Part shown: positions 34,010 to 51,394 of the stretch, piece by piece
Position numbering within the stretch: position 1 is the first letter of the stretch
Layout: each line of letters starts with the position of its first letter
From: Escherichia coli 042
GTDB lineage: Bacteria > Pseudomonadota > Gammaproteobacteria > Enterobacterales > Enterobacteriaceae
Length of the DNA: 64,000 bases
Strand: one strand, 5' to 3'
Assembly: GCF_000027125.1 (NCBI RefSeq)
Contig: NC_017627.1
Made by a program: the position numbers and the translations under genes
Notes under the pieces: generated by a model
Database searches by the model: none
Told to the model about the DNA's origin: nothing
What the model saw: only the letters and a program-made list of their open reading frames with translations

Positions 34010-34430
34010 ATGTATACCTCTTTATTTTCTTATCGAATCAAATTTATTTCACATATAAAAAAATGACAATTCATCGATGAATCGAATCGTGACGCAAGTT
34101 ACGAAAATTACGATTCATGCAGCAAATCACATCACGAATTGAATCTAGAGTCAATTCGCTTTAACTCGTTGTTTTATTATTACTGATTCATCTATGAGTT
34201 GCGTTAAATTCATTGGTGAATCATATGCGATTCACCAATGAATCCTTTTTATAATGTAAAATAAATTAAAATACATTATTTAAAACATAAGTTAATGATT
34301 CAAATAGCAAATCAGCAAAAACTTGTTTTTGCGTGGGGTGTGGTGCTTTTGGTGGTGAGAACCACCAACCTGTTGAGCCTTTTTGTGGAGTGGGTTAAAT
34401 TATTTACGGATAAAGTCACCAGAGGTGGAA
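34010..34430 (+). promoter_or_regulatory. oriT: oriT (origin of transfer); nic site predicted between 34341 and 34342 on the plus strand
   Basis: F-type nic motif GTGGGGTGT/GGTGCTTTT at 34333-34350 between traM and orf169; AT-rich region 34020-34300. Confidence 0.85.
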
Positions 34431-36467: not shown

Positions 36468-36483
36468 AATTCCTCCTGTATCT

Positions 36484-36944
36484 GATGTTTTCAGCCCCCA
36501 TCATCTGTTGAGTTTCGGGAGCCGCGGTTTTGACGTTTTGCGGGGACCTGCCTTTTGTTCCCTCCGGTATTCACCATCACCTGTTTGAGAACCTTCGCCG
36601 CAAGGGGCATCACTGCCACGGCCTGACGCACCTGTCCTGGGCAGAACGCAAAATTTTTTACCGGGTTTTAGGTAAAAAATTTTGTGGTCTGTTCATTTAC
36701 CCTGGACAGTCAGTGCGGCAGGTTGTGGCTGTATCAGCCCCCGGCGACAGGGGCTTAAACAGGTGAATGGCACCGGACACAACAACGGGCAGGGACCCGC
36801 CGCAACGACGTGAAGCGCGGTTTGCGAAACGGCGTTGCGCCTTACATCCCGGCGGCCTTTTGCCGGGATGCCAGGAGCGCAGGCCACGGCGCGACAGAGG
36901 CGGCGCGACCGGAACGGTCGCTGCAAGCCCGGGGTTTCGCGTCA
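36484..36944. repeat. Frpo-like repeat A (putative single-stranded DNA promoter element)
   Basis: Near-identical to 42053-42506 and 45451-45900; internal palindromes such as aaaattttttaccgggttttaggtaaaaaatttt. Confidence 0.7.
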
Positions 36945-39201: not shown

Positions 39202-41160
39202 TCAGGCGGCATCAGCCAGGTTATCGGTGCGTTCAGTGGCATCTGTCTGTGGATGTGGTGCACACATCCAGCCTGGAACCCAGCGGTTGTCTTTCATATT
39301 GTGCTCTGCATGTTCAGCCGCATCACCTTTCTTCATCTTCTCCGCGTCCCGTGCGGCACCGGACAGCCCTGCCTCATTCAGGGCTGCGATAATCTGCGGC
39401 TTTTTCAGGTGTCCGAAGAAGTTTGCTTTTGTCGGCTGCCACCAGTCACGCATGTGAAAGCCGATGGCGCTTTCCAGCGAGTCAAGCGGACTGCGTGACG
39501 TGTGACCACACTCGCGGGTCTGAACGCCGTGGATGCTGCACGCGGTACAGAAGCTGAGCAGGGATAACAGCACCTCCTGGCTGAGTGACAGGAACGTCGT
39601 CATATCCCGTTCCCATCCTTCCGGCAGCAGGGCAGCAAAACGAGAGTGTTCTGCCATCAGCGCCATGAATGCGGCACCTTCCTTCCCCGACGGTGCATCG
39701 CTGGTCAGCGCATAATGCTCACATTCCAGGCGAATTCTGGCGGGACTACTATGCGCTTTGCTGCCAAACACATTCAGGCAGAGCGTCCATGCCAGCAGTG
39801 TCAGGGATTTGTCCGGTTGCTGCATCAGTGCCGCCTGGACTGCCAGCGTGCGTTCGGAAGACATTTTCGTCAGCAGTGGCAGACTGATTTCCTCCACTGA
39901 CGCTTTTTCCTGCACCTGTTCCGTGCGGTCAGCGTCGTCAGCCGCATCATCCTCACTGCGTAACTGCACACCACGCTGGACACATACGTTTCCATAACGC
40001 CAGGACACCACCACTCCACCTCCGGCACGCATCTCCGGCGTCCACGCTCTGACCTTCGCCATGCAGCGCATCAGCTTCATTTCTGCTTCCAGCAGGTCAG
40101 ATTCCTCACACTGATTTTCCAGCGCGTCGTAACGCGTCATCAGTTCGTTCAGACGTTCTTCTTCCGCCTCCGTCAGCACCGCTTCCGGCTCCGGCAGACA
40201 GCGGTATGTTCCGGCATCCTCACGGCACTCACCGACAGGCTCCATGCGTCCGGCGCACCATCCCCAGCCTTCGGCTTCCCGAAGGAACTCTGCAACAGCC
40301 TGGAGTTTTTCCAGCAGGGCGGCATCGAGCGCAACACAGTCCACATAGCCACCCTCGTCGTCGCTGAACAAATCAGTGCGCAGTTCATCTGGCGAGAAGG
40401 CATCAGCCCCCACAAAGCGGAATTTACTGTTCCCCGCCACCGCCACTTCACTTTCGGTCACCAGACGACGAATGGTCTGTACTTCCGGTTTACCGCCCCA
40501 TCCCGACTGGCAGGCGGCTTCAAACACCTGCACCTGACGCGCGGTGTCGTTCTCCAGCGCCAGCGCCTGACAGTGCTCTGTGGTGATGCGGTCTTCTGCC
40601 AGCGCATCGAGGATGACAGGCGCAAGGTCTGCCAGTTTCAGCATTCGCTGAACGTGGCGGGGCGAATAGCCCAGCAAATCACCGATTTGTGCAGGCGTTT
40701 TGCCTTCCTGCGCCATCGCACGGAATCCGGCAATCTGTTCGGCAGGGTGCATATCCCGACGATGACCGTTTTCAGTCATTGATGCAGCCGTCGCCAGCTC
40801 CTGCGGAATAACCTTCACGCGTACAGGCCAGTCAGCCGGAATGATGCCACGCTCTGCCAGCATGTTGAGTGCTGCCAGTCGGCGACCACCTGCGGCGACA
40901 CCGTAACGGTCACCAGGCAGGGTATGCACGACCAGATTCTGCAACAGGCCAACGCCCTTAATGGACTCCGCCAGTTCGCTGACGGACTCTGCGGAATACG
41001 GCACAGTGCGCACATTCAGCGGTGATTTAATCAGTGAAGCCAGCGGCACACTCACTTCCTCCGTCTGCGCCAGCAGGGCAGACAGGACTGTTTCCTGCGT
41101 TTTTGCATATTTACGGCTTGCTTTGCGGGTGGTTTCTGGTTCACACTTCGTTACAGGCAT
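39202..41160 (-). CDS. ParB-like nuclease-domain leading-region protein (652 aa)
   Basis: N-terminal ParB/Srx-like region LQNLVVHTLPGDRYGVAAGGRRLAA; conserved position between ssb and psiB. Confidence 0.85.
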   Translation of the reverse strand: MPVTKCEPETTRKASRKYAKTQETVLSALLAQTEEVSVPLASLIKSPLNVRTVPYSAESVSELAESIKGVGLLQNLVVHTLPGDRYGVAAGGRRLAALNMLAERGIIPADWPVRVKVIPQELATAASMTENGHRRDMHPAEQIAGFRAMAQEGKTPAQIGDLLGYSPRHVQRMLKLADLAPVILDALAEDRITTEHCQALALENDTARQVQVFEAACQSGWGGKPEVQTIRRLVTESEVAVAGNSKFRFVGADAFSPDELRTDLFSDDEGGYVDCVALDAALLEKLQAVAEFLREAEGWGWCAGRMEPVGECREDAGTYRCLPEPEAVLTEAEEERLNELMTRYDALENQCEESDLLEAEMKLMRCMAKVRAWTPEMRAGGGVVVSWRYGNVCVQRGVQLRSEDDAADDADRTEQVQEKASVEEISLPLLTKMSSERTLAVQAALMQQPDKSLTLLAWTLCLNVFGSKAHSSPARIRLECEHYALTSDAPSGKEGAAFMALMAEHSRFAALLPEGWERDMTTFLSLSQEVLLSLLSFCTACSIHGVQTRECGHTSRSPLDSLESAIGFHMRDWWQPTKANFFGHLKKPQIIAALNEAGLSGAARDAEKMKKGDAAEHAEHNMKDNRWVPGWMCAPHPQTDATERTDNLADAA

Positions 41161-41218
41161 AATCATCCCCTTATAATTGCTTATGTCCTGCCGGACGTTC
41201 GCGCGTCCGGCACCTCTC

Positions 41219-41452
41219 TTACTTAAGAATGCCGAAATTCCGGATGACATGGTTCATCCAGTACCCGGCACCGTCCTCAAAATTCCAGGTACGCCAGACC
41301 AGGCCACTGTTATTGCGGACAACCAGGCGAAAATGCGTTCCCTGATCATCCTCGATAAAGACATTCCGGTACTGTGCGGCAACGGCTTCAGCCTGTTCGC
41401 GGGTAAAGGAGCCGTCAGGCAGCCCCTGAAATATTCTGAAATATTCGCTCAT
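41219..41452 (-). CDS. Small conserved leading-region protein (YubL-like)
   Basis: 77 aa from [10 protein letters not shown]..., between ssb and the ParB-like gene. Confidence 0.5.
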
Positions 41453-42052: not shown

Positions 42053-42690
42053 TGATGTTTTCAGCCCCCATCATCTGTTGAGTTTCGGGAGCCGCGGTTT
42101 TGACGTTTTGCGGGGACCTGCCTTTTGTTCCCTCCGGTATTCACCATCACCTGTTTGAGAACCTTCGCCGCAAGGGGCATCACTGCCACGGCCTGACGCA
42201 CCTGTCCTGGGCAGAACGCAAAATTTTTTACCGGGTTTTGGGTAAAAAATTTTGTGGGCTGTTCATTTACCCTGGACAGTCAGTGCGGCAGGTTGTGGCT
42301 GTATCAGCCCCCGGCGACAGGGGCTTAAACAGGTGAATGGCACCGGACAGAACAACGGGCAGGGACCCGCCGCAACGACGTGAAGCGCGGTTTGCGAAAC
42401 GGCGTTGCGCCTTACATCCTGGCGGCCTTTTGCCGGGATGCCGGGAGCGCAGGCCACGGCGCGACAGAGGCGGCGCGACCGGAACGGTCGCTGCAAGCCC
42501 GGGGTTTTCACGCATCGGACCGTAGCGACAGCCCGAAACCGCGCCAGCGGGTTCGGCGGAGACTGGCGGGTGCGCCAGCAGCTGCCTGTCGGAGTCGGGC
42601 CTGACGACCGGATGCCGCCAGGCAGCCGGGAGCCGAAGGTGCGCCCGGCAGACAGGACAACACTGCAGTAGTCAGAATCAGAGCGGCAGG
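42053..42690. repeat. Frpo-like repeat B, immediately upstream of ssb
   Basis: Near-identical to repeat A over about 450 bp and to repeat C over about 600 bp. Confidence 0.7.
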
Positions 42691-42700
42691 AAAAAGAAGA

Positions 42701-42784
<84 letters not shown>

Positions 42785-42961
42785 ACAACAACATCATCAG
42801 TAACAGACAAATGACAGGTCTGAAAAGACAGAAGCCCCCATCAGAACGTCCGCGTAATGAAAGGGGCGGCGCGTGAGCGCGGCCCCTTTCAGCGCCACCG
42901 GCGCGCGGTCTTTTCCCGGCGCGGACAGACGGGCATTTATCCTCCCGCCAGCCCTGTGTCA

Positions 42962-45215: not shown

Positions 45216-45450
45216 AAATGCATCCTTATGACTGTTGACTGGAGCCGCAAAAACTGTTCGTGCAGTCTCTGCAGCATGGATTAAGCAGGTTCCTGACCTG
45301 CTTTTTTCATATCTGCATCTGACGCTTTCCGGTGTTTTCCTCCTTCTGTTCCTGCGTTCTCATTACCTGCCAGCCGGATGACTGACAGAACACATAAATG
45401 CGTATTGCCGGAGCCTGAAATAAATCCTGATTTTTAAAGAACATCACCCG

Positions 45451-46060
45451 TTGAGTTTCGGGAGCCGCGGTTTTGACGTTTCGCGGGAACCTGCTGCTGT
45501 ATTCCCTGTGGTATGAACTTCACCCGTTTGAGAACCTTCGCCGCAAGGGGCATCACTGCCACGGCCTGACGCACCTGTCCTGGGCAGAACGCAAAATTTT
45601 TTACCGGGTTTTGGGTAAAAATTTTTGTGGGTTGTTCATTTACCCTGGACAGTCAGTGCGGCAGGTTGTGGCTGTATCAGCCCCCGGCGACAGGGACTCA
45701 TACGGGTGTGTGGCACCCGGCAGGCAATGAGCAGGGGCCCGCTGCAACGACGAAGAGCGCGTGCGCGAAACGGCGTTGCGCCTTACATTCCGGCGGCCTT
45801 TTGCCGGGATGCCGGGAGCGCAGGCCACGGCGCGACAGAGGCGGCGCGACCGGAACGGTCGCTGCAAGCCGGGGGTTTTCACGCATCGGACCGTAGCGAC
45901 AGCCCGAAACCGCGCCAGCGGGTTCGGCGGAGACTGGCGGGTGCGCCAGCAGCTGCCTGTCGGAGTCGGGCCTGACGACCGGATGCCGCCAGGCAGCCGG
46001 GAGCCGAAGGTGCGTCCGGCAGACAGAACAACACTGCAGTAGTCAGAATCAGAGCAGCAG
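45451..46060. repeat. Frpo-like repeat C
   Basis: Shares about 600 bp with repeat B including the tail ...cactgcagtagtcagaatcagag. Confidence 0.7.
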
Positions 46061-46247
46061 ATAAAGGAACAACAACATCAGGAACAGTTCCATAACATAA
46101 GAAAGAAACACTCCTGAGTCAGACACATCACAGACGGGAAGGGTAACGGGCGACGCGCCAGCGTGGCCCGCTTCCCTTCCGGCAGGCGTCAGCCTGCCAG
46201 GGGTTTTCGCGCGGGCTGACAGGCGGCCTCCACCGCCTGCCCCTGTA

Positions 46248-46439
46248 TCACCTGTTTCTGCTGCCCTGTAAGATGTAGTGACCGCCCAGGAAAACCGCCT
46301 GCTGATTCGCCACAAAATCGCAGATTTCATCAACAATCTGCGCGGTGGTGAGCGGTTTCTGCCCCATTTCACGACGCCGCGCATTAATCACGGCCCTGTA
46401 ATTACGCAGAATTTCGCGGGTTTCCGTGCTGATATTCAT
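46248..46439 (-). CDS. Small hypothetical protein (63 aa)
   Basis: ORF overlapping the stop of the upstream gene by 4 bp (operon-like). Confidence 0.35.
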   Translation of the reverse strand: MNISTETREILRNYRAVINARRREMGQKPLTTAQIVDEICDFVANQQAVFLGGHYILQGSRNR

Positions 46440-46858
46440 GACATCGTCTCCCCGTCCAGCGCCTGCAACACAACGTCCATTGCTTCGCGTTCCTCCCTGA
46501 CGAATGCGTCACCGTCGCCCCCGTTCTCACTCCCGACGGCATACAGGCGCTTCATTTCACTGCCTGCCAGCGCCATCACTTTTTCCAGCATCACCGCCGG
46601 GACTGTCACCTGACGGCTGGCGTGCTTTTCCTCCATCAGTTCACGAACAACGTCGTGAACAACGCTGACATCCGCACCATGCTCAAAGGCATCGTCCAGC
46701 CGCTGCATGACGGTTTCCAGCTCATCGTCTGTCAGACTCCAGTCCTGGGCTATGTGACGCACATCCCCACGAGTCAGCACCACGGCAAAAACGCATTCAC
46801 TGTCCGGCACGTCTGTATCCAGCACTTCGCGGATAATTTCTTTAACAGTACAGTACAT
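46436..46858 (-). CDS. Hypothetical leading-region protein (140 aa), paralog of 48561-48995
   Basis: Shares MY.T...E...RQVTVPA..L pattern with the 144-aa ORF. Confidence 0.5.
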   Translation of the reverse strand: MYCTVKEIIREVLDTDVPDSECVFAVVLTRGDVRHIAQDWSLTDDELETVMQRLDDAFEHGADVSVVHDVVRELMEEKHASRQVTVPAVMLEKVMALAGSEMKRLYAVGSENGGDGDAFVREEREAMDVVLQALDGETMS

Positions 46859-46904
46859 GTTCTCGTCTCCTTTACAGGGGCGGCATTGCCGCCCCGTCCG
46901 TTAA

Positions 46905-47330
46905 TCAGTCCAGCGCCGCATAAATCGCGTTACATTCGGGGTGAAATTCGATGTGGCTCCACAACTGCGCATCGCGCATCCTGTACAGGTGAGTCAGCCC
47001 TGCGCTACCGCTGTCGTGGTACAGCCACAACTGGCGGTTAATCACAAGGGAGGTCAGGATGATGCCTGCGGCATCAGCACTCACGGTACGGTCAAACCAG
47101 TTTTCACCGTTAACCAGATGAAAACGGTCGCCATCCGGCATCATGTAACCGCCACCGTCCGGCAGGCGGATGAAGTGCCAGAATCCGCCTTCATATTCCG
47201 GCATCATTTTTTTCGCCAGCGCGTACACAGATGCCTCGGCATACAGAAAATCCAGGCCAAACAGGTAAGGCAGAAAGGAGAGACGGTCGCACTCTTCAAC
47301 ATTCAGAGTGACAGGTTTCGCATATTGCAT
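46905..47330 (-). CDS. klcA: KlcA/ArdB-family anti-restriction protein
   Basis: 141 aa [25 protein letters not shown]...[21 protein letters not shown] resembling KlcA/ArdB. Confidence 0.8.
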
Positions 47331-47366
47331 GATGTTTTCCTCCGTTGTTCACATATTCCGCGACAC

Positions 47367-47600
47367 CGGGCGGTGCCGTGCCTCCATCTTTGCCGGGCCT
47401 GCAGGGTTGCAAGGGCGCAAGGGAAGCCGCAGCCTGACGCACACGGCTGGCGGGAGTTGGAGGGTGAGACCGCGAAATCTGAGCGGGTGAACGACCGGAA
47501 AATCACGGCAGACGGGAAGGAGGGACCGGGTGACCGCAGCGGTTCACCTTACCTTGCAACCCGCCCGCAGAAGCCCGGCTACGATGGAGGCACGGCACAG
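47367..47600. promoter_or_regulatory. Long imperfect inverted repeat (about 230-nt hairpin) upstream of klcA; candidate ssDNA promoter distinct from the Frpo-like repeats
   Basis: Arms 47367-47415 and 47548-47600 are reverse complements (ccgtgcctccatc / gatggaggcacgg; gggttgcaagg / ccttgcaaccc). Confidence 0.45.
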
Positions 47601-47745
47601 CCCGCACACGACGCTGAGGCCACATAACTGAAAACCCACAAGGCCATGCCCCGCATGGCCGGGTAAAGCGGAGCCTGCGGCGACATCCTTTTGCTCTTTC
47701 CGGGGACCGGCTGGAAAAGGCGGAGATTTTTCCCCGCCAGCGTCA

Positions 47746-48561
47746 TCATTTCCGGATTTTCGCCAGTGCATCCGCCATGCTGCGGATTTCATCCCGTGCC
47801 TCCAGAACAACCTCCCGCAGAATATCCCGGTCAAACCAGCGACGGGACGGTTCATCCGGTATACGCAGCACATCACAGACCAGACCACTGGACAGGATAT
47901 GCTCCACACACTCACTGACCAGATACATTTCCACCGCCGAAAAACGTGCTCCCCGGTTCAGGATAGCATCGAGCACCACGGGCAGATTTTCGTCATCTTC
48001 ATCAAGCCAGCAGGGGTAATCGCTTTCCTTCACAACCAGACGAAAGCGGCGCGTCTGGCGGGTCAGCAACGTCTGACCGGTGGTGGTCAGCGCCGCACGG
48101 ATACGCCGCGCATCTTCTGCCACCCGGCAACTGACACTGCATACTGCATCGCGCACCGCATCAAGAACCGCCCTGATTTCTTCCTCCGTCAGCCATTCAC
48201 CGGCATACGGGAAAGACACCTGCGTTCCGTCTGCCGGAAGTACCGGCAGCGACTGCCACTGACTGCCGGACAGAACAAGTTCCGCTCCGGTTCCGGTCAG
48301 TTTCTGAATGGCAGAGGCCAGGAGCGGCGGCAGTACGCCGCCGTGACGGTTGATAAGTAACGTCGCCAGCCGGGGCGCATCCAGCCGCACGTAAATGCTG
48401 ATCCAGCCCGGATAGTGCGGATTCAGTTGTTCAATATCCGTCTCTTCCGGCCAGCCCTGCGCCAGCAGCAGGTTACGGGCGTGGCGATAAACCAGTGCAT
48501 TCAGCGTTTTGTTCATGATTAATGGTCTCCCTGAATCGCCGCCCGAAAGCGGCGATAACAT
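47746..48561 (-). CDS. Hypothetical leading-region protein (271 aa)
   Basis: ORF contiguous with the upstream 144-aa ORF (stop/start adjacency). Confidence 0.5.
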
Positions 48562-48995
48562 CAGTCGTTTTCGTGTGTGTTGTTTTTCAGCAGGGCGCGG
48601 GCCTGATTAACCACCGCCTGACGGCGGGTGACACATTCCGGGACGGCGAGGCCATGATCCCGGGCGGCCCATTCACGTTTCCACAGTGCCTGTTCGGCGG
48701 TCTGAATCAGGGACGCCAGCAGTTCAGCCGGGACGGTCACCTGGCGGTTTTCTCTCACGTTATTGATGATCTCCATCGCCACGCCGGAAGAAATACCGGA
48801 TTCAGTCCGCTGGTCTTCCGGGATGTCCTCCAGGCGCGCCAGGACAGTCCTGATTTCATGATCGGACAGGGAAATATCCATTCCGTCAGCGAGGGCCTGA
48901 ATTTCTTCCGGGGACCAGATAACCAGCATCAGCGGCGTGTCTCCCGGATACTGCGCTGCCAGCTCCCGGCATAGCGTTTCGCATGTTCCGTACAT
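48561..48995 (-). CDS. Hypothetical leading-region protein (144 aa), paralog of 46436-46858
   Basis: Conserved [10 protein letters not shown] motif and N-terminal MY.TCE. Confidence 0.5.
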
Positions 48996-49008
48996 TCTCG
49001 TCTCCTTC

Positions 49009-49230
49009 TCAATCTTTGAAGCAGGAATCCAGTTCCAGAATTTCGGTATACGCCTCCATGAACAGGCGATTGGCGCGATACAGCGTCTGGCGTGTCAGGC
49101 GTTCAACAAGCACATCGGAATCAAAGCGACAGCGATGCTCCATATCGTTCAGCCTGGCCCGAAGGTCACACATGGTGTTGGCCACCTCCGCCACGTCGGC
49201 GCGAAGTTTTTCGTGTCCGGCATAGTTCAT
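49009..49230 (-). CDS. Small hypothetical protein (73 aa)
   Basis: ORF directly downstream of the methyltransferase gene. Confidence 0.35.
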   Translation of the reverse strand: MNYAGHEKLRADVAEVANTMCDLRARLNDMEHRCRFDSDVLVERLTRQTLYRANRLFMEAYTEILELDSCFKD

Positions 49231-49914
49231 TTACGCAGCCTCCGGTTCAAACCAGTTATCATTCGCGGCCCCCTGCTGCATGGCCCGTTGCACGGCGGCC
49301 AGTCGTTGCTGTCCGGCACGGTGATACTGTTCAAGCAGCTCGATACCGATATACCGGCGTCCGGACTGAAGGGCGGCGACGCAGGTTGAGCCGCTGCCTG
49401 CAAACGGGTCCAGCACAATCGCGTTCGGGTGTGTGAAGCTCTCAATCAGCGGTTGCAGGCTGGTAACGGGCTTTTCAGTCGGGTGATGACGATTGCCTGA
49501 ATATTTCCAGCCCAGCACGTCGGGCAATGGCTTCTGAGGCAGCGCCGGACGTCCTTTTGCCAGGATGTAGGCGCATTCGTGGCGATAGCCCACATATGCG
49601 GCCTTCGATGTGTAGGTTTTGGTAAACACCAGGTGGCCAACCACGCTGAATCCCGCATTTTTCCAGGCGGCCATAAAGCGATCGACGCGGTTCCAGCCAT
49701 AGAAGCTCACCATTAACGCGTCTTTTTTGAGTACGCGGTACATTTCATTACAGGCTGGTTGCAGCCATTCATCGGTTTTATCGCCGGCGATGGTGCGCCC
49801 GGAACGGTCACGGAAACCGACGAGATACGGCGGGTCGGTGAGGATGAAATCGACAGCATTGCCCGGAAACGTGGCCATAACACGCACGCAGTCACCCAGG
49901 ATAAAACGGGACAT
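49231..49914 (-). CDS. Orphan DNA adenine methyltransferase-like protein (beta-class amino-MTase motif order)
   Basis: 227 aa; DPPY motif (ILTDPPYLVGF) N-terminal and FxGxG-type DPFAGSGST C-terminal; no cognate endonuclease nearby. Confidence 0.85.
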   Translation of the reverse strand: MSRFILGDCVRVMATFPGNAVDFILTDPPYLVGFRDRSGRTIAGDKTDEWLQPACNEMYRVLKKDALMVSFYGWNRVDRFMAAWKNAGFSVVGHLVFTKTYTSKAAYVGYRHECAYILAKGRPALPQKPLPDVLGWKYSGNRHHPTEKPVTSLQPLIESFTHPNAIVLDPFAGSGSTCVAALQSGRRYIGIELLEQYHRAGQQRLAAVQRAMQQGAANDNWFEPEAA

Positions 49915-50249
49915 AACAGCACTCCTTCTCTTACAGAGGGCACCGGGAGGGCACCCCTGTGGTGCCCGTTCCCCGCTGCCTGTGGGCTGTTCACCGCGTC
50001 CGGTAACGGGTCAGGCCGACCGTGGAATACCGCAGCCGTCGTCTTTTTGACGGCAAGGCTATGCCGCGAAAGCGGCTTGAAGGGCGTTCATCAGAAAAGG
50101 GCTCCCGGCTGGCGTACACTGTCACCAACGCCAGCCGGGAGCGGTAAAAGCGCCCGTCCCGTGCCCGGCCGGACGCGGGACACTGACCACAGGCAGCGTT
50201 CCTGCCGCGCCGCGTCAGCCGGCGCAGTAAAAAGAGGAGCCCGGCGACA

Positions 50250-50431
50250 TCTTTTGTCACCCGCCAAACAAAACCCAAAAACAACCCACACCCAACCCAA
50301 TAAAACACCAAAACAAGACAAACAATCATTGATTGATGGTTAAAATGGGGTAAACTTGACAAATAAACCCACTTAAAACCCAAAACATACCCAAATACAC
50401 ACCAAAAAAAACACCATAAGGAGTTTTATAA
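50250..50431 (+). promoter_or_regulatory. parC: parC-like centromere/promoter region upstream of parM
   Basis: A/C-rich repeated motifs (aaaccc, acccaa, aaaaca) upstream of the parM RBS. Confidence 0.55.
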
Positions 50432-51394
50432 ATGTTGGTATTCATTGATGACGGTTCAACAAACATCAAACTACAGTGGCAGGAAAGCGACGGAACAATT
50501 AAACAGCACATTAGCCCGAACAGCTTCAAACGCGAGTGGGCAGTCTCTTTTGGTGATAAAAAGGTCTTTAACTACACACTGAACGGCGAACAGTATTCAT
50601 TTGATCCAATCAGCCCGGATGCTGTAGTCACAACCAATATCGCATGGCAATACAGCGACGTTAATGTCGTTGCGGTGCATCACGCCTTACTGACCAGTGG
50701 TCTGCCGGTAAGCGAAGTGGATATTGTTTGCACACTTCCTCTGACAGAGTATTACGACAGGAATAACCAACCCAATACGGAAAATATTGAGCGTAAGAAA
50801 GCAAACTTCCGGAAAAAAATTATATTAAATGGTGGGGATACATTCACAATAAAAGATGTAAAAGTCATGCCTGAATCTATACCAGCAGGTTATGAAGCTC
50901 TACAAGAACTGGATGAGTTAGATTCTTTATTAATTATAGACCTCGGGGGCACCACATTAGATATTTCTCAGGTAATGGGGAAATTATCAGGGATCAGTAA
51001 AATATACGGAGACTCATCTCTTGGTGTATCTCTGGTCACATCTGCAGTAAAAGATGCACTTTCTCTTGCGAGAACAAAAGGAAGTAGCTATCTTGCTGAC
51101 GATATAATTATTCACAGAAAAGACAACAACTATCTGAAGCAACGAATTAATGATGAGAACAAAATATCAATAGTCACCGAAGCAATGAATGAAGCACTTC
51201 GTAAACTTGAGCAACGTGTATTAAATACGCTCAATGAATTTTCTGGTTATACGCATGTTATGGTTATAGGCGGTGGCGCAGAATTAATATGCGATGCAGT
51301 AAAAAAACACACACAGATTCGTGATGAACGTTTTTTCAAAACCAATAACTCTCAATATGATTTAGTTAACGGTATGTATCTCATAGGTAATTAA
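50432..51394 (+). CDS. parM: ParM (StbA) actin-like partition ATPase
   Basis: 320 aa [32 protein letters not shown]..., essentially R1 ParM. Confidence 0.97.

Follow-up and report, generated by a model that had tools for sequence, protein, structure and literature searches.

We show that, in its leading region, the IncF plasmid in a 64,000-nucleotide (nt) stretch of Escherichia coli 042 DNA (contig NC_017627.1; hereafter the window) carries an ancient, positionally fixed pair of paralogous DUF1380 genes, one in each of two operons headed by homologues of promoters that act on single-stranded DNA (ssDNA). The open reading frames (ORFs) encode a 144-amino-acid (aa) protein (48561-48995) and a 140-aa protein (46436-46858), the lengths first reported, and both lie on the minus strand; plus-strand reading of the same coordinates was ruled out, the translations being full of stops. 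The original prediction had taken the two for paralogues from a shared N-terminal MY.T..E and a central RQVTVPA..L motif, which left room for a similarity confined to a short motif. Pairwise BLASTP gave 31% identity across 111 residues (E=1e-10), and profile–profile comparison with hhalign, using a separate alignment built for each protein's relatives, gave a probability of 99.5% and E=8e-23 over 134 columns. The homology is therefore full length, reaching well beyond the two motifs, and the paralogy claim holds. The central motif is indeed identical in both proteins. The N-terminal motif stands only in part: MY.T is shared, whereas the following E falls at position 7 in the 140-aa protein and at position 6 in the 144-aa protein, so that the motif is better given as MY.T followed by RE at positions 10-11.

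The 144-aa protein matched PF07128 with 185.6 bits (E=5.7e-55, model positions 1-137), above the gathering threshold of 26 bits, whereas the 140-aa protein fell below that cutoff (21.6 bits, E=2.4e-4) and aligned to model positions 1-102 only. Close relatives of the shorter protein nonetheless carry precomputed PF07128 matches, 26 of 29 divergent family members match the model, and the Prokaryotic Genome Annotation Pipeline (PGAP) labels both proteins 'DUF1380 family protein' on near-identical plasmids. Both ORFs are thus members of DUF1380 (PF07128, PHROG 9024), a family with no assigned function or solved structure. The 144-aa protein is a canonical DUF1380 protein (clade A) and the 140-aa protein belongs to a divergent sister clade (clade B); they are 95% and 98% identical to Hp10 and Hp12 of plasmid pESBL, respectively. 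A search with the family hidden Markov model found no third DUF1380 paralogue among the ORFs of the window. A duplicated family within one leading region, as originally proposed, is therefore what the plasmid holds. Paralogy was already implied by current annotation, and both families were already catalogued as uncharacterised. Samuel et al. 2024 (Nature 635:186, Supplementary file 3) list them as family 7 (YcgB/YfcB/YubF; 3,957 members, median ORF position 19 from oriT) and family 14 (YcjA/YcgC/YfeC/YubJ; 3,145 members, median position 15), both enriched in leading regions (false discovery rate about 0), encoded on the transferred strand (T-strand) and among the largest uncharacterised families. 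The two appear there as separate entries, and the paper discusses neither their paralogy nor the fixed placement with respect to ArdB and the methylase that we describe below.

The window represents an IncF plasmid in which the tra genes occupy about 1-33 kb, the leading region runs upward from nic, and parMR lies at 50.4-51.7 kb; the leading region includes DUF932, hok, psiA, psiB, ParB-like and ssb genes. With nic on the plus strand, the plus strand is the T-strand, and it serves as template for the leading genes, all of which are minus-strand genes. Both DUF1380 genes, about 12.5 and 14.7 kb from nic, accordingly lie inside the leading region with the transferred strand as template. In order of transcription, the module reads hairpin I2, methylase, YubE, clade A gene, YchA-like gene, terminator-like site, hairpin I1, ArdB, clade B gene and 63-aa ORF. 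The genes are tightly packed: the YubE start abuts the methylase stop, the clade A gene begins 13 nt past YubE, and the clade B stop and the start of the 63-aa ORF share 4 nt (ATGA), which suggests, on sequence, that these two genes may be translationally coupled.

Both operons have upstream of them a structured hairpin homologous to an experimentally mapped ssDNA promoter. I1 has inverted-repeat arms of 32 nt that are 91% complementary and folds as DNA more stably than shuffled sequences (z=−5.3); it is 89% identical to the yffB–yfgB intergenic region of F, and in a three-way alignment with F and pESBL about 94% of its columns are conserved. I2 has 30-nt arms that are 83% complementary (z=−8.0) and is 96% identical to the region upstream of the F methylase. 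The two hairpins share no sequence similarity with each other, and sequence-unrelated loci from Erwinia and a metagenome have a significant T-strand hairpin at the corresponding place (z=−3.4 and −3.8). No sigma-70 consensus promoter was found on either strand of the 4.4-kb module (46000-50450), where 1.8 were expected from shuffled sequences; this is consistent with expression from ssDNA hairpin promoters. In pESBL and F, class 2 and class 3 ssDNA promoters fire only while the entering plasmid is single-stranded, and the KlcA and M.EcoGIX operons of both plasmids are induced in transconjugants, with starts mapped by 5' rapid amplification of cDNA ends (PMC12672017). The F promoter ssp2 drives yfgB (ArdB) 'and other leading genes downstream' and also stalls complementary-strand synthesis (bioRxiv 10.64898/2026.01.09.698686). 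From operon membership we infer that both DUF1380 genes are expressed early.

We sampled 13 independent contexts, comprising F, pESBL (IncI1; L022), IncI-gamma/K1 (L018), Cronobacter, Klebsiella, Enterobacter, E. coli 0H24 (IncFIB; L015), Erwinia, Pectobacterium (pPAR01; L019) and Serratia (pR28_75; L020) plasmids together with metagenomic contigs. Wherever the flank was visible in these 13 contexts, the methylase and YubE preceded clade A, and ArdB preceded clade B. In a neighbour-joining tree, every copy upstream of ArdB fell in one clade and nearly all copies downstream of ArdB in the other, one deep-branching downstream copy being ambiguous; in Escherichia, Enterobacter, Erwinia and Pectobacterium plasmids alike, the two clades are distinct and each keeps its side of ArdB. 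Synonymous divergence between the paralogues of the window is saturated (dS ∼1.8), so the duplication is ancient rather than recent. Gene conversion between the paralogues was considered and rejected: they share only a 13-nt patch at the ribosome-binding site and a 17-nt patch of motif codons, dS is saturated, and the identity at the ribosome-binding site is lineage-specific. The 13-nt patch is an identical string, AAGGAGACGAGAA, that precedes each gene on the minus strand (48996-49008 and 46860-46872), the identity being found in the IncF/I lineage only.

Copy number differs among loci, with 0-2 copies on either side of ArdB. The E. coli 0H24 plasmid (NZ_CP081776.1, 3908-7411) has two tandem DUF1380 genes on either side, four in all, and Pectobacterium pPAR01 (NZ_CP027261.1, 4433-7600) carries three, two of them downstream of ArdB; Serratia pR28_75 and locus L007 have ArdB with no clade B copy. 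Across distant loci, identity to the window was 72-89% for the methylase, 47-76% for ArdB and 47-75% for YubE, compared with 28-57% for clade A and 31-47% for clade B, the DUF1380 proteins being the fastest-diverging of the module. The YchA/YubG-like protein diverges as fast (41% identity in L015; ratio of non-synonymous to synonymous rates, dN/dS or ω, 0.23-0.50). The whole module, from the methylase to the 63-aa ORF, is 86-98% identical at the protein level (YubE ∼75%) between the present MOBF/MPF_F plasmid and L018 (NZ_CP013221.1, MOBP/MPF_I), which implies exchange of leading-region cassettes between conjugation types.

Pairwise dN/dS was computed among closely related loci, with L015, the most divergent locus compared, excluded. 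On this basis ω was 0.18-0.27 for clade A and 0.17-0.32 for clade B, compared with 0.06-0.12 for ArdB and 0.08-0.15 for the methylase, so that DUF1380 is clearly under purifying selection, 2-3 times more relaxed in ω than its anti-restriction neighbours. Values of 0.17-0.32 mark both as real genes. They speak directly to the possibility that the two are non-functional ORFs hitch-hiking with ArdB and the methylase through linkage, for which the absence of a phenotype in pESBL transposon insertion sequencing (TnSeq) and of any known domain could be cited; purifying selection, intact full-length orthologues at ∼30% identity with conserved motifs, strong Shine-Dalgarno sequences and confident folded models together leave that explanation with hardly any credit. 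The same values bear on the suggestion, made with the original prediction, that such proteins track variable targets. Fast divergence, a copy number of 0-2 per side and a focusing of divergence in helix 2 (H2), in the loop with helix 4 (H4) and in the C-terminal hairpin fit that suggestion, whereas purifying ω values and the lack of a positive-selection signal do not, so that it is only circumstantially supported. In its strongest form it would make a recently duplicated pair under diversifying selection, with an arms race against variable host targets as the main driver. The fastest divergence in the module, the extra copies in L015 (four) and L019 (three) and the raised variability in H4 and parts of the hairpin all point that way, but the duplication is ancient, with each clade kept in distant plasmids, gene-wide ω is 0.17-0.43 and never exceeds 1, and in the IncF/I lineage the hairpin turn region has an invariant stretch in each clade rather than hypervariability. 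We therefore regard an arms race as distinctly unlikely to be the main driver.

Coordinates of the module and of the associated sites in the window are collected in Table 1.

Table 1. Features of the DUF1380 module and its surroundings, in window coordinates.
Feature	Position	Strand	Evidence and remarks
F-type oriT nic	34333..34343	+	GTGGGGTGTGG match; tra genes below, psiA/psiB/ssb above
63-aa ORF	46248..46439	-	Downstream of clade B; conserved there in F, pESBL Hp13, L014 and L015
Clade B DUF1380, 140 aa	46436..46858	-	Other names YcjA/YcgC/YfeC/YubJ; pESBL Hp12
GC-rich intercistronic hairpin without T-run	46877..46895	-	Between ArdB stop and clade B start; sequence GGGGCGGCAATGCCGCCCC
ArdB/KlcA-type anti-restriction gene	46905..47330	-	PF03230 E=3.1e-26; first gene of clade B operon
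Hairpin I1, long, imperfect	47367..47604	+ (transferred strand)	Upstream of ArdB; class 2 ssDNA promoter homologue (F ssp2, pESBL klcA promoter)
Terminator-like stem-loop and T-run	47637..47655	-	Between operons, YchA-like stop (47746) on one side and hairpin I1 on the other
YchA/YubG-like ORF, ∼256 aa	47746..48516	-	phrog_8919 E=4e-133, aligned from residue 17; last in clade A operon
Clade A DUF1380, 144 aa	48561..48995	-	Other names YcgB/YceB/YfcB/YubF; pESBL Hp10
YubE-family ORF, 73 aa (PF27407)	49009..49230	-	phrog_4830 E=1e-36; PF27407 label in related loci
M.EcoGIX-type orphan N6-adenine DNA methylase	49231..49914	-	PF01555 E=1.9e-40, NF010253 E=5e-150; first gene of clade A operon
Hairpin I2, long	49974..50198	+ (transferred strand)	Upstream of methylase; class 3 (M.EcoGIX; ssp3) ssDNA promoter homologue

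The ArdB gene of the window corresponds by position to yfgB of F and to KlcA/ArdB of pESBL. The YchA-like ORF, read mechanically, extends to 48561 and encodes 271 aa, but it probably starts at 48516 instead, giving 256 aa; PGAP gives 771 nt for the YchA-like gene of pChi7122-2. With that start, the 1-nt overlap with the clade A stop is not real. An element similar to the GC-rich intercistronic hairpin occurs in the distant loci L004, L014 and L015, and this hairpin may be an attenuator or an mRNA stabilizer that sets the ratio of ArdB to clade B expression. Elsewhere in the leading region, a direct repeat of 300-640 nt occurs in three copies (36483-36937, 42053-42693 and 45426-46064; 99% and 84-97% identical), the first upstream of the hok/psi block, the second upstream of ssb and the third upstream of the DUF3560 block; all are probably copies of the class 1 ssDNA promoter, Frpo/ssi. 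Between the ssb-proximal repeat and a gene for a 187-aa methyltransferase lies a hexanucleotide array, (AGCAGT)n grading to (AGCAGG)n, at 42676-42807, and five overlapping A/C-rich iterons with 11-bp spacing upstream of parM (50270-50421) are probably the parC centromere. The 682-aa ParB-like ORF at 39202-41250 (minus strand) is the counterpart of F YfjB, which a July 2026 preprint (PMC13370423) renames HerB and describes as a CTP-binding clamp that reprogrammes host transcription after transfer. As a lead on the present pair it was dropped, since that work treats this neighbour and not DUF1380.

Both DUF1380 proteins are acidic, clade A having an isoelectric point (pI) of 4.71 and a net charge of −10, and clade B a pI of 4.35 and a net charge of −18. 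Across the family, pI lies between 4.3 and 5.2 in 28 of 29 members, and in the same 28 the N-terminal ∼78 residues carry a net charge of −5 to −13; the C-terminal half of clade A is roughly neutral (net −2 to +4). AlphaFold2 (AF2) models, with a mean predicted local distance difference test score of 85.8 for clade A and 78.0 for clade B, show six helices whose layout coincides in the two clades, the predicted architecture being an N-terminal domain of ∼83 residues, the RxVTVPAxxL element and then a long helical hairpin. The MYGT-like N terminus and RxVTVPAxxL are common to the 29 aligned family members. In 21 representatives sharing <70% identity, mean pairwise identity was 40% over residues 1-28 and 52% over the RxVTVPAxxL motif, which form the conserved core, compared with 19-25% in H2, the loop with H4 and the entire C-terminal hairpin. 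Variability is raised in H4 and in parts of the hairpin; at or beside the hairpin turn, both clades keep a clade-specific stretch that does not vary within the IncF/I lineage, in clade B ENGGDGDAF.

A basic residue followed by a short, hydrophobic-alternating strand with a proline and then two helices recalls the ribbon-helix-helix (RHH) proteins CopG, Arc and MetJ, in which case the RxVTVPAxxL strand would pair in a dimer and bind DNA together with the two helices after it, the family then serving to control the leading operons or to bind the promoter hairpins. Besides this resemblance to the RHH strand–helix signature, R84 is nearly invariant in the 29-member alignment, the C-terminal half of clade A is close to neutral, and two or three divergent members weakly match Pfam RHH_5, aligning over exactly the strand and helix A. 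The scores, however, stayed below threshold: RHH_5 was matched by 3 of 25 C-terminal fragments and by 2 of 29 full-length members, with E=0.024 and 14.8 bits where the cutoff is 26. DUF1380 also differs from RHH proteins in its far longer helices, its acidic context and the lack of a structural match, and we think an RHH-like DNA-binding role improbable.

The family is small and plasmid-restricted. An exhaustive HMMER search found 273 DUF1380 representatives among 1.84 billion representative proteins, many of them frameshift fragments, and there was no homologue in the phage genomes of INPHARED. Hosts were all Enterobacterales: Escherichia, Klebsiella, Salmonella, Enterobacter, Citrobacter, Yersinia, Serratia, Erwinia, Pectobacterium and Lelliottia. 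Single-protein and profile searches of the PDB returned nothing relevant, and the best Foldseek match to the PDB had E=0.39; against BFVD, Foldseek gave weak matches only, between the N-terminal ∼80 residues and uncharacterised phage proteins of 71-92 aa. No NCBIfam family matched the pair, and no Pfam family other than DUF1380 recurred across members, nor was any catalytic family matched. One PP-binding/ACP match (E=0.0056) was rejected because it occurred in 1 of 29 members only, and long 'fusion' homologues (P0241, P0248, P0256 and others) proved to be singleton deletion or rearrangement artefacts and not Rosetta-stone fusions. A literature search found no functional study of DUF1380 or its gene names.

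From these properties we propose that the two DUF1380 proteins are transiently expressed, non-enzymatic, acidic helical binders whose target in the recipient is a host (or plasmid) macromolecule, with partners specific to each clade; we give this reading a probability of roughly 0.45, a little short of even, and the role would probably be in anti-defence or establishment. The argument for a binder-like role rests on a pI of 4.3-5.2, the acidic N-terminal domain, the lack of a catalytic family match and the C-terminal helical hairpin. Clade A is encoded by the third gene of the operon methylase–YubE–DUF1380A–YchA-like and clade B by the second gene of the operon ArdB/KlcA–DUF1380B–63aa; each operon is headed by a different long T-strand hairpin, in the first case an orthologue of the class 3 and in the second of the class 2 ssDNA promoter. 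By homology, both proteins would be made in a transient burst in the new recipient, alongside an ssDNA methylase and an anti-restriction protein. Being small, strongly acidic, all-helical and two-part, they are predicted from composition and fold to be non-enzymatic and would most likely work as stoichiometric binders of another macromolecule, the most probable target being a host defence or DNA-processing protein, and would thereby aid establishment in hosts that carry the target factor. Clades A and B would have different partners, set by the diverged surfaces of helix 2, helix 4 and the hairpin.

The genetics of pESBL are compatible with a role of this kind. Hp10 and Hp12 were non-essential by TnSeq for maintenance and for transfer into K-12, and M.EcoGIX, KlcA, ArdA and PsiB, whose roles show only in particular recipients, received the same score; scored like these, Hp10 and Hp12 would have a conditional role. 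Effects that depend on ssp2 are seen in the natural recipients HS, IAI1, B and ED1a. The pESBL M.EcoGIX homologue is specific for ssDNA and protects against restriction (PMC4288162, PMC7736820).

The proteins might instead serve the product of the first gene in their operon as accessory or modulator subunits: clade A, possibly with YubE, would stabilize, target or restrain the ssDNA methylase, and clade B would work with ArdB/KlcA, whose own mechanism is indirect. The strict positional rule, which holds down to ∼30% protein identity, would be explained in this way, as would the tight packing in which the methylase stop abuts the YubE start with 13 nt between YubE and clade A, and it was not possible to characterize native M.EcoGIX in vitro, and its activity was lost on purification (PMC7736820). 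M.EcoGIX alone, however, methylates ssDNA both in PURExpress reactions and in vivo (PMC7736820). Clade B is no obligate partner of ArdB, which occurs without it in Serratia pR28_75 and L007. On IncP and IncN plasmids, ArdB/KlcA homologues function with no DUF1380 gene known to accompany them, which again counts against an accessory function, and neither a copy number of 0-2 per side nor an ω for DUF1380 2-3 times that of the supposed partners sits well with it. An accessory function is accordingly unlikely in our view.

Several observations weigh against the proposal of transient acidic binders. Guilt by association within a conserved syntenic block is weak, since the linkage could be historical. 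The report of induction in transconjugants (PMC12672017) concerns the operons and not the two DUF1380 ORFs singly. No known anti-defence family showed similarity among the Pfam and NCBIfam matches; PADLOC gave no match, its models being of defence-system and not anti-defence proteins; and Samuel et al. 2024 obtained no genuine DIAMOND or Foldseek match to anti-CRISPR and anti-restriction sets. The AF2 models are of monomers with predicted template modelling scores of 0.53-0.56, and so fix neither domain packing nor oligomeric state, and dN/dS gave no signal of gene-wide positive selection. More tentatively still, DUF1380 might constitute a new effector family, expressed zygotically and serving anti-defence or host takeover, in which the conserved N-terminal scaffold and the RxVTVPAxxL element present a diversifying helical surface and clades A and B, with the extra copies of some plasmids, neutralize different host systems. 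We consider this possible, with the odds clearly against it; it would explain why IncF and IncI antimicrobial-resistance plasmids keep one copy in each ssDNA-promoter operon.

Comparison with known leading-region and anti-restriction proteins shows where the proposed binders would fit. Like ArdA and Ocr, the DUF1380 proteins are small, very acidic and, by prediction, non-enzymatic, and ArdA is likewise encoded in leading regions and made early from ssDNA promoters; no sequence or fold similarity between ArdA/Ocr and DUF1380 was detected, however. Net charges of −10 and −18 and pI values of 4.3-4.7 are compatible with DNA mimicry, although charge alone is not diagnostic. ArdB/KlcA is the neighbour of clade B, in the same operon, of similar size (141 aa) and subject to the same zygotic induction, but it is not homologous to DUF1380 and evolves more slowly (ω 0.06-0.12 versus 0.17-0.32). 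PsiB and HerB/YfjB are also zygotically induced, dispensable for transfer into K-12 and active on host proteins or the chromosome during establishment; PsiB, which binds RecA, and HerB, a ParB-like CTPase clamp, have folds unrelated to DUF1380.

Both genes are carried by thousands of IncF and IncI resistance and virulence plasmids and are among the most prevalent uncharacterised leading-region families, and the KlcA and M.EcoGIX operons are switched on from ssDNA within minutes of plasmid entry. What is new here is descriptive: the ancient two-clade split, the positional rule, the finding that the paralogues belong to operons with different classes of ssDNA promoter, the variation in copy number, and the map of conserved scaffold versus diverged surfaces. 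These points give a concrete design for deletion and interaction experiments. If the DUF1380 proteins do counteract host barriers, they would shape plasmid host range and could be targeted to block the spread of resistance.

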